A stretch of DNA of 24,007 nucleotides, taken from Oligoflexus sp. Lineage in GTDB: Bacteria > Bdellovibrionota_B > Oligoflexia > Oligoflexales > Oligoflexaceae. The notes under the pieces were generated by a model, which did not search any database, was not told the origin of the DNA, and saw only the letters and a program-made list of their open reading frames with translations. The position numbers were made by a program, and so were the translations under genes. Of the stretch, positions 1-24,007 are shown in pieces. The DNA is taken from assembly GCA_041736305.1 (NCBI GenBank), contig JBGSTX010000085.1, positions 1-24,007 on the forward strand, written 5' to 3'. Each line of letters opens with the position of its first letter. Within the stretch, counting starts at the first letter, position 1.

Positions 1-136
1 CTCTTTTAAGAACTGCGATATCATTCAAGCATTTGATGGGTATATGTATGCTTAAGATTATCTCCGATCTGGGAGCAAGATGGCTCCCTATTCCTCCACG
101 CCCTAAAGGACGTGGTTTCCAAGGGAGCAAGAACTG
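1..136 (+). mobile_element. 3' terminal part of an IS200/IS605-superfamily IscB element
   Basis: iscB-like C-terminus; hairpin GGGAGC-AAGATG-GCTCCC (71-88); subterminal hairpin in TTCCT-CCACGCCCTAAAGGACGTGG-TTTCC (stem 96-115); then ...GAACTG|ATGA. The exact boundary at 136 is inferred. Confidence 0.8.
2..55 (+). CDS. iscB: 3' end (last 17 codons) of an RNA-guided endonuclease IscB, truncated by the window edge
   Basis: Frame 2 reads SFKNCDIIQAFDGYMYA*, matching the typical IscB C-terminus (S.K.C..[LI]Q..DGY.Y). It is followed by an IS200/IS605 terminal hairpin, and an omega-RNA 5' end lies at the other window edge. Confidence 0.8.
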   Translation, partial: SFKNCDIIQAFDGYMYA

Positions 137-1117
137 ATGAAGCTTTCAATTCTTGATCTTGCTCTGGTATCCCCTACTCACGGAGTAGCAGCAACTTTTG
201 CAGCGAGTGTTGCTTCTGCAGTGCGTGCCGAAGAACTTGGCTATACCCGCTATTGGTTTGCCGAGCATCACAACATGACCTCAATTGCCTCATCGGCGCC
301 GGCCGTGTTGATCGCGCACCTCGCTGCTCACACGAAAAAAATTCGCCTAGGCTCTGGCGGTATCATGCTGCCCAATCATTCTCCCCTTGTGATCGCCGAG
401 CAGTTTGGAACTTTGGCCTCTTTGCATCCAGGCCGCATCGATCTTGGCCTTGGTCGGGCACCTGGTGGGGACCACAAGGTCTTTGCCGCTCTCCGACGTG
501 ATCCTGCCGCTGCTGAACATTTTCCTCAGGACGTGCTGGAACTGCAGAGATTGCTCGGACCTACATCAAATGAGATGGCCGTAAAAGCTATACCTGGAAC
601 TGGAACCCAGGTTCCTCTCTATATTCTCGGCTCTTCACTTTTTGGAGCTCAGCTAGCCGCTCGCCTCGGTTTACCTTTCGCGTTTGCCTCACATTTTGCA
701 CCGGATGCTCTCGAAGCAGCTATGGAGATCTATCGCGAAGAGTTCCGACCTTCGGAGGCTTGTCCCACGCCTTACGCTATTGCGGGTATGAATGTTATCG
801 CCGCCGATAAGCAGGAAGAAGCCGAGCAACTATTCTATGAAGCATGGCGCCGTATCGCCCGCAGTATAGGTAAAATCGAAAGTTCAGAAAGCGTGGACGA
901 TGGGATTTTGCTCCGATCTCCTGCTGGACAGCATGCAAGGCATATGCTCACCTACGCTGCGGTGGGGGATGGTCCCCGCATAAAGGCCCAGGTAGAGCAA
1001 TTTGCGAAGCAATCCAGAGCGGATGAAATTATCGTCGCCACCCATCTCATTGAACCAAGTACACGTATTCGATCTTATGAAATTCTGGCTCAGGCCATGG
1101 ACTTATCTCCACGTTGA
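137..1117 (+). CDS. LLM class flavin-dependent oxidoreductase (luciferase-like, YhbW-type)
   Basis: Motifs RYWFAEHHN, IRLGSGGIMLPNHSPLVIAEQFGTL, GRIDLGLGRAPG, LGSSLFGAQLAARLGLPFAFASHF. Confidence 0.95.
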   Translation: MKLSILDLALVSPTHGVAATFAASVASAVRAEELGYTRYWFAEHHNMTSIASSAPAVLIAHLAAHTKKIRLGSGGIMLPNHSPLVIAEQFGTLASLHPGRIDLGLGRAPGGDHKVFAALRRDPAAAEHFPQDVLELQRLLGPTSNEMAVKAIPGTGTQVPLYILGSSLFGAQLAARLGLPFAFASHFAPDALEAAMEIYREEFRPSEACPTPYAIAGMNVIAADKQEEAEQLFYEAWRRIARSIGKIESSESVDDGILLRSPAGQHARHMLTYAAVGDGPRIKAQVEQFAKQSRADEIIVATHLIEPSTRIRSYEILAQAMDLSPR

Positions 1118-10291: not shown

Positions 10292-12286
10292 ATGATGCGA
10301 AACTATGTTCGAGGTACCCTGCTCGCCAGCTGGCTCCTCGCGACCTACTCGGGGCTTGCACGCAGCGAAGTCCCTGTCAGCCGACGAGAAGTCGGCAAAC
10401 TTGTGATGGAAAACATTCCAGAGATCCCGTCAGCCCTTCAAGATAGGCTGGGACAGTACGAAAATATTCGTTCTGCTTCCTTCCAAGGTTGGCTGCCAGG
10501 ATCAAGTGGGCTTCTCATCAGCACCCGTTTCGGGGAGGCGGCCCAACTGCATACCGTCAAGTCTCCTCTGCATGCAAGGCGCCAAATAACCTTCTACCCA
10601 GAGCCCATCGGTGCGGCGACAGTGAGCCCGAGCGGCGATCGGATCGCCTTTCTCAAAGACCAAGGTGGTGACGAGAACTCTCAGATCTACCTTACCGACG
10701 CTACAGCCAAGCAATTTACTCTGATAACGGACGGGAAATCGCGTCACGAGTTTCCGCTCTGGGACAAAGCGGGGCGCTCGCTGGCCTATTCGAGCAGCAA
10801 GCGCAATGGTCGCGACACCGATGTTTATATTCACCGTCTGGGCCAGAGCCAGTCTCAAAAGAAACCCGAAGGTGAGATTCTTATTCAGGAAGGCGGCTAC
10901 TGGCGGCCTGTCGACTTCAGTCCTGACGGTTCGCAGCTGCTCGTTTCCAAGGTGGTGTCGAGCACTGAGAATTACCTCTATCTTTACGATTTCAAGGCCA
11001 AGAAACTCGATCAGCTCTTCCCAGGAAAACAGCTGGCTTTTGGGGACGCGAGCTTCTCTAAGGATGGCCGCCAGATTTTTTTGACGATGGATGATCCTGG
11101 CGAATTCAAGGTCCTCTATTCTTACCAGCCGCAGAACAAGAGCCTAACTCCTATCTCGGCCAAGATTCCCTGGGATGTGGAGAGTCTCGAGGTATCTCTG
11201 GACGGCAAAAAGCTACTTTTCAAAACCAACGAAGACGGGATCCATCGGCTTTACGTCGCCGAGCTTCCGAGCTTCCGCTACGAGGAAATCAAGGGCCTTC
11301 CAGGAAGCCAGATTGGCAAACACGGCTTTCACCCCGAAGATAGCCAGCGGCTGGCCCTCTCAGTTTCCAGCTCAAGCCTGCCCGGTGATGTTTTTGTGTA
11401 TGATCTGAAAAAAAAGAAGTTTGAACCCTGGACCGACAGTGAAACGGCAGGACTCGATCGAAAGAACTTCGTAGAACCTCGCTTGATTCACTACCCGACT
11501 TTCGACCAGGTGGCTGGCGAAGCGCGCAAAATTCCGGCCTTTCTCTTCAAGCCGCGCGACGCTCGCGGCAAAGTCCCGGTGGTAATCAATATTCACGGTG
11601 GACCTGAGGCCCAATATCGTCCCGGATTCTCGGCTTTTTTCCAGTATCTAGCCAGCGAAAGCGGAATTGCGGTAATAGCGCCTAACGTCCGTGGGAGTTC
11701 GGGCTATGGAAAAAGCTTCATCACGCTGGATAACGGCAAAAAACGCGAGGACTCCGTAAAGGATATTGGAGCCCTTCTCGACTGGATCGCGCAACAAGAG
11801 GATCTCGATAGCCAGAGAGTGGCTGTCATGGGTGGCTCCTACGGGGGCTACATGACCCTTGCTAGCCTGGTGCATTATGGTCCGCGCTTGGTAGGGGGCA
11901 TCGACAGTGTCGGCATCAGTCACTTCATAAGCTTTTTGACCAACACCAAGTCTTACCGTCAGGACTTGCGCCGAGTAGAATACGGCGACGAGCGCGATCC
12001 GGATATGCGGGCCTTTCTCGAGCAGATTTCGCCCCTAACCCAAGTGAACAAGATTCAAAAGCCGCTCTTTGTCGTGCAGGGCCTGAACGATCCCCGCGTG
12101 CCTGCATCCGAAGCTGAGCAGATTGTAAAAGCAGTGCGCGCCAGTGGCAACGAGGCCTGGTATTTGCTAGCGCAGGACGAAGGGCACGGCTTCCGCAAGA
12201 AAGCCAATCAAGCCGTATCTCTGCAAACCAACGTCATGTTCCTCGAAAAGATTCTCTTTCCAGCTAAAACCAGTAGTTTGCCCTAA
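10292..12286 (+). CDS. Exported S9 family peptidase (prolyl oligopeptidase/acylaminoacyl peptidase)
   Basis: Signal peptide, beta-propeller repeats (SPSG, FSPDG, FSKDG), IHGGPE, nucleophile GGSYGG, NDPRV, DEGHGF; RBS GAGGAG. Confidence 0.95.
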   Translation: MMRNYVRGTLLASWLLATYSGLARSEVPVSRREVGKLVMENIPEIPSALQDRLGQYENIRSASFQGWLPGSSGLLISTRFGEAAQLHTVKSPLHARRQITFYPEPIGAATVSPSGDRIAFLKDQGGDENSQIYLTDATAKQFTLITDGKSRHEFPLWDKAGRSLAYSSSKRNGRDTDVYIHRLGQSQSQKKPEGEILIQEGGYWRPVDFSPDGSQLLVSKVVSSTENYLYLYDFKAKKLDQLFPGKQLAFGDASFSKDGRQIFLTMDDPGEFKVLYSYQPQNKSLTPISAKIPWDVESLEVSLDGKKLLFKTNEDGIHRLYVAELPSFRYEEIKGLPGSQIGKHGFHPEDSQRLALSVSSSSLPGDVFVYDLKKKKFEPWTDSETAGLDRKNFVEPRLIHYPTFDQVAGEARKIPAFLFKPRDARGKVPVVINIHGGPEAQYRPGFSAFFQYLASESGIAVIAPNVRGSSGYGKSFITLDNGKKREDSVKDIGALLDWIAQQEDLDSQRVAVMGGSYGGYMTLASLVHYGPRLVGGIDSVGISHFISFLTNTKSYRQDLRRVEYGDERDPDMRAFLEQISPLTQVNKIQKPLFVVQGLNDPRVPASEAEQIVKAVRASGNEAWYLLAQDEGHGFRKKANQAVSLQTNVMFLEKILFPAKTSSLP

Positions 12287-12349: not shown

Positions 12350-12562
12350 AAGGTCGAGAGGATTGGATGGTCGGCCAGCAGAAGGCTTTAAGCCCTTCTA
12401 TGTTCGATGATGCTGCTGAGATCTACCTAGATGCGAGGCAAACGGTGCCACGCTGAGAACGAATCCGTTTCTATACAAGTGAGTCTGCATACGGGTAGGT
12501 TGACTATCTGGACGAGCCTCCTATACTTGCCTCGAATTTATAGATTCATCGTGAGGATAACT

Positions 12563-13033
12563 ATGCAACGCATCATAAGCTCCAGCATCTTAGCTCTGCT
12601 AGCAGGAACTCTTCTCCACGCAAGCAGCGCCGCAGCATGCTCCTGTGCAGTCTCTACCAAGAAACAGGACTATCTAAATGCTGACTATGTCTTCATCGGC
12701 AAGAACCTCAGAACCAAGACAGTTAATGTCGGAGATGATTTTCCAAAAGTAGAGTTTGTGGTAGAGGTCGAGAAATCGTTCAAGGGCAAGCTTCCCCGCT
12801 ACGTCGCCGTGCGTACGGAAAGTAATTCAGCCATGTGCGGCGTATCATTGGCAAAGAATCAGACCTACCTGCTGTATGCAGACAAGGGGACCCGCAAGTA
12901 CATACAGACTAGCCTTTGTACGCGCACCCAAGCTATCGCAGGCGACTCGGCTGCGGAAGATTTAGCTTGGCTCGAGCGCCTGCCTGCTTCACTTTCCGAG
13001 CCCGAAGAGACATTGCCTCTGCCTTTCCAGTGA
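12563..13033 (+). CDS. Exported TIMP-like (NTR-fold) protein
   Basis: RBS GAGGA before ATG 12563; signal peptide ending AAA then CSC; ADYVFIGK, AMCGVSL...TYLLYA, TSLCTRT. Confidence 0.8.
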   Translation: MQRIISSSILALLAGTLLHASSAAACSCAVSTKKQDYLNADYVFIGKNLRTKTVNVGDDFPKVEFVVEVEKSFKGKLPRYVAVRTESNSAMCGVSLAKNQTYLLYADKGTRKYIQTSLCTRTQAIAGDSAAEDLAWLERLPASLSEPEETLPLPFQ

Positions 13034-23775: not shown

Positions 23776-23888
23776 GTAGTTAGGATTTAAGAGCACGCAC
23801 TCGCATGACGGGAATGCTTCAAGTTCAATAGTCCTGACTACTTATTCGGGGGCATCGCTTCTTCGCAAGCGACTTCGCATCTTGGTTC

Positions 23889-24007
23889 GTCAACTACCCG
23901 CCCCTAAAGGGGCGAGCTTGTAAGGAGAAATCCAAGCAGTCTTCACGTTGACCCGACTCAGCAAGGGATTCATATCCCGAGCTATGTTAGGAGCAAATAC
24001 ATAGGTA
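23889..24007 (+). ncRNA. 5' portion of a HEARO/omega-RNA scaffold (IscB guide RNA), truncated by the window edge
   Basis: GTCAAC (23889) pairs with GTTGAC (23947); CGCCCC-TAAA-GGGGCG then AGCTTG; ACCCGACTCAG; GGGAT-TCAT-ATCCC; CTATGT/ACATAG then GTA. The order matches known HEARO/omega scaffolds. Confidence 0.85.
23889..24007 (+). mobile_element. 5' terminal part of an IS200/IS605-superfamily IscB element
   Basis: Begins GTCAAC; subterminal hairpin shares the CCCTAAAGG core with the hairpin at 96-115. Confidence 0.8.

Follow-up and report, generated by a model that had tools for sequence, protein, structure and literature searches.

An iscB-proximal transposon end directly before a host start codon in Oligoflexus

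The window, i.e. the whole stretch of 24,007 nucleotides of Oligoflexus sp. DNA that was analyzed, opens with what is very probably the iscB-proximal end of a non-autonomous ISC-type IS200/IS605 transposon (positions 1-136), about 1.7-1.8 kb long judging by its orthologues. The anatomy of the element, its copy number, its two boundaries and an empty site were directly established. The left edge of the window is organized as follows.

1-55 (+): 3' end of iscB, with the last 17 codons at 2-52 and a TAA stop at 53-55; the gene leaves the contig leftward.
56-136 (+): non-coding transposon end beside iscB, an IS200/IS605 left end in reverse complement, defined by five copies, orthologue conservation and single-stranded DNA folding.
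71-88 (+): first stem-loop, GGGAGC-loop-GCTCCC, read from the sequence; its GGGAG/CTCCC arms are kept in orthologues.
97-116 (+): subterminal imperfect hairpin with covariation, where TnpA probably binds; 20 nt separate its 3' foot from the target.
123-127 (+): GGGAG, a Shine-Dalgarno-like motif within the transposon end, 9 nt before the host ATG.
137-141 (+): ATGAA, host target site or transposon-adjacent motif (TTCAT on the strand read by the transposase); its ATG is the start codon of the gene that follows.
137-1117 (+): luciferase-like monooxygenase (LLM) gene, 326 aa, directly behind the element (PF00296, E 7.1e-43).

The coding part of this end belongs to a family of RNA-guided nucleases, IscB, to which Cas9 traces its ancestry. 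Positions 2-55 translate as SFKNCDIIQAFDGYMYA, followed by TAA. A preliminary description, made from the letters alone, had taken this peptide for the C-terminal end of an IscB protein, and the frame, the stop codon and the recurrence of the tail bear it out: the IscB tail feature ...C..[LIV][QH]..DGY.Y is present here, and [IV]..K.C..[LIV][QH]..DGY.Y is found again in related IscB loci. Since window base 1 is the first base of the contig (C217, of which the window is the whole, in an assembly of 392 contigs and 5.02 Mb), the iscB frame leaves the assembly itself and not just the window. The same frame can be followed on a paralogue, contig C109, which is 98% identical over the 142 shared bases and extends upstream to 241 residues, including an HNH domain (PF01844, E 3.2e-12; PF14279, E 3.5e-12) and a WIDAACVG stretch; the HNH domain is thus seen on the paralogue, not on the window's own copy. 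Among 40 related genomes searched, same-genus orthologues are present in eight, with 64-77% identity and open frames of 398-455 aa. The closest one (L017, from Oligoflexus tunisiensis) has 427 aa, is 75% identical to the C109 fragment and carries both RRXRR (PF14239, E 1.1e-67, residues 4-180) and HNH (PF01844, E 4.8e-13). When an orthologue was compared to the assembly by tblastn, it matched C109 only, plus one IscB gene each on C219 and C254 that belong to another family (35-37% identity). No assembly contig contains residues 1 to ~186 of the window's family (RRXRR, RuvC-I) or the stretch between guide RNA and iscB, and the C109 interior has no other match anywhere in the assembly. The N-terminal half, and with it the full length of the window copy, is therefore deduced from orthologues: of the motifs that the preliminary description expected upstream (RRXRR, RuvC and HNH), HNH was recovered on the paralogue, and the N-terminal RRXRR and RuvC-I are expected from orthologues rather than seen. 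When metagenome contigs were scanned for 45 nt of the end sequence, no exact match and hence no further copy was found; a protein-based scan of metagenomes gave only relatives of at most 62% identity, and no assembled full copy of the window's exact family. The two genes of the other family, C219:25852-27033(-) and C254:3247-4730(+), are complete (377 and 394 aa); this different, shorter family has RRXRR and HNH, is 35-37% identical to an orthologue of the window's family, and each gene stands behind a HEARO RNA of its own.

The position of the contig start is explained by repetition. Window bases 1-141 recur at the start of C255 (100%), at the starts of C30 and C31 (99%) and in the interior of C109 (673-814, 98%), i.e. 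at least five near-identical copies of the element collapsed the assembly at this point. Counted by their ends, copies of the family comprise at least four guide-RNA-side ends (C12, C65, C363 and C217) and five gene-side ends. The window contig is itself flanked by two copies in the same, direct orientation, which accounts for the assembly breaks at both window ends. Contigs from four public runs were compared with window 1-800. In run X1, a 551-nt contig equals window 1-141 without differences and extends leftward by another 410 nt. It has a depth of 33.6, the unique flank one of 10.4 (about 3x); as all copies add to this figure, it indicates a collapsed repeat only roughly. Runs X2 and X3 match just short conserved parts of window 1-800 and are uninformative on the locus; run X20 is considered below. 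Elsewhere in the assembly, contig ends fall into shared-repeat families of 23, 9, 8, 7 and 7 ends, which suggests several more collapsed mobile elements. Further along the window, a gene at 12431-13033 (+) encodes a 200-aa bacterial protein with a TIMP (tissue inhibitor of metalloproteinase) domain (PF00965, E 2.5e-10) and adjoins a gene for an S9 prolyl-oligopeptidase-type peptidase (10292-12286).

Both boundaries of the element were located to the base. The five copies share ...GGAGCAAGAACTG (...AACTG), then ATGAA followed by A or G, then unrelated DNA, so that the target ATGAA(R) follows the end in 5/5 copies. In run X20, a 2318-nt contig corresponds to window 137-800 with 18 differences, and the 30 letters that it carries before 137, TGGAGCTGCTCTCAAGTCAAAGAGGCAAAT, occur at a single place in the genome, C12:6200-6229, where they abut the GTCAAC with which the C12 HEARO begins. 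The related strain thus holds the empty site ...GGCAAAT|ATGAAG..., and the window copy lies from C12:6230 to window 136, between ...CAAAGAGGCAAAT and ATGAAG, with no duplication. Comparison of the empty with the occupied site places the element at N|ATGA without target duplication, as in Kapitonov et al., and identifies the boundary ATG as host DNA. Position 136, where the preliminary description had ended the element, proves to be its exact last base (136|137), by the divergence of the five copies and by the empty site. Among 36 aligned related ends the four boundary bases are ATGA in 35 and GTGA in 1, the central TG being forced by the rule used to pick sites and the first and last bases being free. 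N|ATGA is the target published for ISC elements (PMC4810608), and the motif of GstIscB (ISGst5) is TTCAT, abutting the left end (10.1101/2023.03.14.532601). Site-specific insertion by a 4-5 nt motif without target duplication, a feature of the ISC group of IS200/IS605, is therefore observed here. At one related locus (L043), nine bases, ATGATGACT, occur at the element boundary (~3835) and again 227 nt downstream (~3990), at the start of a 191-aa ORF; this repeat may be a gene start duplicated at insertion.

Between the iscB stop and the target lie the hairpins. The sequence CCACGCCCTAAAGGACGTGG at 97-116 forms an imperfect stem-loop of 5+2 pairs, in which a single A of the 3' arm stays unpaired (a T when the other strand is read). 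Read on the transposase's strand, the end starts with TTCAT and 21 nt, then the hairpin CCACGTCC-TTTA-GGGCGTGG with its one unpaired T. An unpaired T is typical of IS608-type hairpins. Folded as DNA, this other strand of 56-141 reaches -14.4 kcal/mol (z = -2.79; 0/200 shuffles fold as well), the hairpin being enclosed by an outer stem that joins window 83-89 to 122-128. The outer stem corresponds to an alternative pairing of GCTCCCT (83-89) with AGGGAGC (122-128) that encloses the second hairpin; the ten bases at 71-80, GGGAGCAAGA, return at 123-132. Conservation in same-genus orthologues extends past the stop codon, and the hairpin CCACGCC/GGACGTGG seen here is replaced in O. tunisiensis by CCACCCC/GGAGGTGG, a compensatory change. 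In the alignment of 36 ends, all 7 predicted pairs show double compensatory changes (one pair is UA in 14, GC in 13 and CG in 8 ends) and the loop is conserved as yTrAA; in typical related ends the foot of the hairpin is 15-22 nt from the target. The hairpin that the preliminary description had noticed next to the iscB stop is hence confirmed at 97-116 by covariation and a low-energy fold, and a subterminal imperfect hairpin in place of terminal inverted repeats, again as in the ISC group, is observed there. A similar hairpin, CCCGCCCC-TAAA-GGGGCGAG, was recognized by eye 8 nt inside the HEARO 5' end. The preliminary description was right in calling the segment an element end, yet by transposase convention this is the left rather than the 3' end: as Meers et al. 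describe, the right end is the source of IscB guide RNAs, which makes window 56-136 the left end on the opposite strand. The hairpin at 97-116 was also considered as a terminator, a reading ruled out since window 1-400 contains no terminator-like site; no promoter-like site was found in these 400 bases either.

These comparisons rest on the following sample. The C-terminal motif was present in 119 loci. The flank was too short in 17 of them, a hairpin plus [AG]TG[AG] was lacking by our rule in 42, and 60 passed, giving 53 unique flanks. Seven loci with the motif in a short or disrupted frame had been dropped earlier (L066, L067, L076, L082, L088, L089 and L092). The alignment holds 36 of the 53 rows; four identical copies from this genome, L160 and 12 atypical hairpin picks were left out. 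For counts of insertion sites L160 was removed as a near-duplicate of L154, leaving 52 unique sites. A first automatic hairpin picker often selected host hairpins and was replaced by the hairpin-plus-[AG]TG[AG] rule.

The opposite side of the element carries the guide RNA. The HEARO at C12:6230-6460 scores 110.8 bits for a gathering score of 83 (RF02033), and the empty site ties it to the window copy. A HEARO (114-145 bits) is also found directly upstream of iscB, on the same strand, in 8/8 same-genus loci. The HEARO-like RNA that the preliminary description expected before the nuclease gene is therefore in place, and together with the HNH frame of C109 and the RRXRR and HNH domains of the orthologues it supports the claim that an RNA-guided nuclease gene runs off the left edge. 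The assembly contains 16 RF02033 matches at E up to 1, of which 8 are above the gathering score and many are at contig ends. All those whose 5' end is present begin with GTCAA or GTAAA, which fits the GTCA terminus given for ISC elements (PMC4810608). The HEAROs at the right end of contig C12 and the left end of contig C65 share 85-86% identity with their counterparts in the two closest orthologues, other types 56-79%. In the 296 nt of host DNA that precede the C12 HEARO, no sigma-70-like promoter was detected on the plus strand, and a search by tblastx for a gene-order link between the window and the HEARO contig (six HEARO-side flanks against nine LLM neighbourhoods) gave no match. A second copy begins at the right end of the window.

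23873-23888 (+): presumed 16-nt guide segment of the second copy, host DNA before the scaffold, placed by its position relative to the HEARO; its length is taken from OgeuIscB.
23889-24007 (+): start of the HEARO scaffold of the second copy, i.e. its right end, opening with GTCAAC (first 119 nt, RF02033 positions 1-103).

A guide of 16 nt is the length known from work on OgeuIscB. The scaffold start at 23889-24007 is 99% identical to C12:6230-6348, 98% to C363 and 97% to C65. It was missed at the Rfam gathering threshold and found at the E-value threshold (29.7 bits, E 1.4e-4); its low score is due to the contig end, which cuts its 3' end.

Shorter derivatives also exist in this genome. Five HEAROs of two types lack iscB and are followed directly by end-like sequence: C59:3400-3885(-), C342:16400-16766(-), C371:29319-29680(+) and the starts of C178 and C179. 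No iscB codons are left in these mini-elements, and their junction lies just before ATCTCCG; internal deletions do therefore occur. In run X20, a 1285-nt contig passes straight from iscB-interior-like sequence (compare C109:~555-585) to end position 91, which suggests an internally deleted copy in the related strain. Both observations speak for another reading of the window copy, whose interior is unseen: it could be a decayed or internally deleted derivative made of guide RNA, end and an iscB stub, mobilised and guarded in trans, with no working nuclease gene upstream. We consider this improbable, because the mini-elements are devoid of any iscB codons whereas 55 nt of coding sequence remain in the window, without a difference from C255 and at 98% identity to C109, because the C109 frame continues for 241 aa, and because the X1 contig runs on 410 nt to the left at about three times the flank depth, even if this figure sums all copies.

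The transposase of this non-autonomous element would come from elsewhere in the genome. Fragments of a Y1 transposase (PF01797, best E 3.3e-18) are present at three contig ends (C337 right, C300 left, C53 right), with one degraded copy elsewhere; no complete TnpA gene was found in the assembly. The element that bears this Y1 transposase is multi-copy and also collapsed in the assembly. By eye, it has a similar hairpin (CCACCCC...GGAAGTGG), the spacing of which to its end differs from that of the IscB element. Mobilisation by TnpA in trans is presumed. Meers et al. (10.1101/2023.03.14.532601) report tnpA near only ~1.5% of iscB genes.

The life cycle that these parts suggest can be outlined as follows. 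Read in the iscB direction, an occupied locus would consist of host flank, the last ~16 nt of which would act as guide, a HEARO scaffold of ~230 nt starting with GTCAAC..., iscB of ~427 codons, the 81-nt end with its TnpA-type hairpin and the host target ATGAA. A Y1 transposase encoded elsewhere in the genome would excise and insert one DNA strand via the end hairpins and TTCAT, after the scheme of Meers et al. Transcription entering from host DNA would yield a guide RNA with left-flank sequence in its 5' part, and IscB with this guide RNA would cleave the empty site (flank plus ATGAA), so that recombination could restore the element. The activities of IscB, TnpA and guide RNA in this scheme are those expected from the parts and from their relatives.

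The right side of the target concerns the host gene. Residue 1 of the LLM protein aligns to position 1 of the PF00296 profile, and homologues in the genus begin only 1-6 residues earlier, so the ATG at 137 is at or very near the native start. This configuration is found at other sites: the boundary ATG opens an ORF of at least 100 aa in 26 of the 52 unique sites, compared to 294/1430 same-strand and 190/1309 opposite-strand control ATGR sites taken from the flanks (93 undecided). The corresponding binomial p of 2.3e-6 is too favourable, given the relatedness of the loci and the use of a rule to pick the sites. A Pfam match is available for 20 of the 26 ORFs (six have none), and in 17 of these 20 the first domain starts at profile position 1-6. 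At L123 the ORF, a phosphofructokinase, starts at profile position 14, i.e. at an internal methionine, and two further ORFs are uninformative. Landing on start codons follows from the published target motif. We found no paper linking IscB insertion to start codons or to translational coupling, most subscription papers lying beyond the search.

Signals that could pass ribosomes to the host gene were examined on the same 52 sites. The iscB stop codon falls on the target in ten of them (ATGA overlap in 7, TGATG overlap in 3) and within 12 nt of the ATG in 6 more; in the window it is 81 nt upstream of the ATG. Here GGGAG stands 9 nt before the ATG, in place of the native GAGG 6 nt before the ATG in the empty site. 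GGGAG is kept in O. tunisiensis (L039), and AAGGAG is found at L040. Shine-Dalgarno-like motifs are present in 16/52 related ends against 1137 of 12628 control windows (9.0%), 10 of the 16 coming from two Oligoflexus lineages. One may ask whether the end is mainly an expression module, in which the hairpins and GGGAG set translation of the host gene and the start-codon position evolved for this role and is not a by-product of the ATGA target. The replacement of the native motif, the lack of a terminator-like site in 1-400, the excess of long ORFs behind the ends, their starts at profile position 1-6 and the stops on or near the target all point this way. Several observations make us doubt it nevertheless. 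A long ORF stands behind only 1/5 copies in this genome, and the Shine-Dalgarno-like motifs are confined to 16 ends, mostly from the two related lineages. GGGAG pairs with GCTCCC in the DNA fold, and structure alone may keep it. Selection against intragenic insertion combined with an ATGA target would alone enrich start codons, and the enrichment was counted on mutually related loci under a rule that required [AG]TG[AG]. We regard a mainly regulatory end as a possibility of limited weight beside the transposon end described above.

A further proposal, which we put forward tentatively, is that IscB elements with an ATGA target are organized so as to sit before host genes and leave these expressed. 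They would take over the host promoter and 5' leader, the latter serving also as guide, and pass ribosomes on through an overlap of iscB stop and ATG (ATGA or TGATG) or, in this Oligoflexus lineage, through the Shine-Dalgarno motif 9 nt before the ATG, which the alternative GGGAGC/GCTCCC pairings may mask or unmask. How elements of this type limit damage to the genes they hit is a question on which both the start-codon position and the ribosome-binding motif in the end have a bearing. More generally, the locus neatly illustrates the full logic of the IscB life cycle in a lineage of predatory bacteria that has received little study: as both ends, the guide, the adjacent motif and the empty site of a related strain are defined, the predicted cleavage target can be written down.

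One close parallel, by described features and not by sequence, is ISGst5/GstIscB of Geobacillus stearothermophilus, which belongs to another phylum than Oligoflexus (Bdellovibrionota). For IscB, Meers et al. (10.1101/2023.03.14.532601) describe a guide-RNA scaffold derived from the transposon right end, with the guide 5' of the scaffold and outside the element; GstIscB likewise has its scaffold at the right end upstream of iscB and host DNA outside the element as guide. Its left-end motif TTCAT is the exact reverse complement of ATGAA at window 137-141, and the right-end motif here, TTGAC (reverse of GTCAA), is two positions off TTCAT, as in their own element. TnpA is supplied in trans to ISGst5, and presumably to the window element. 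ISC transposons (ISC1-1_MA etc.; Kapitonov, Makarova and Koonin 2016, PMC4810608) share the 5' terminus GTCA, insertion directly 5' of ATGA without duplication, subterminal imperfect hairpins, non-autonomy and multiple copies. They differ in two respects: start codons are unmentioned in the accessible text of that paper, whereas here the target ATG is the host start codon, and our pair of occupied and empty sites comes from a metagenome-assembled genome and a public run. HEARO (RF02033) is matched above its gathering score by the C12 copy and over model positions 1-103 by the window copy, which the contig end leaves below that score. Concerning the protein, the solved complexes of IscB with guide RNA (PDB 7xht, 7utn, 9k30) align with L017 over RuvC, bridge helix and HNH at E 5.6e-42 to 8.3e-30 (TbaIscB, 9k30, 5.6e-42; OgeuIscB, 7xht, 7.6e-30). 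The window's family is shorter (427 aa, against 441-1068 aa for the IscB chains among the PDB matches listed), the window itself holding only 17 residues. The OgeuIscB motif NWRRNA (PMC12660989) would accept ATGAAA.
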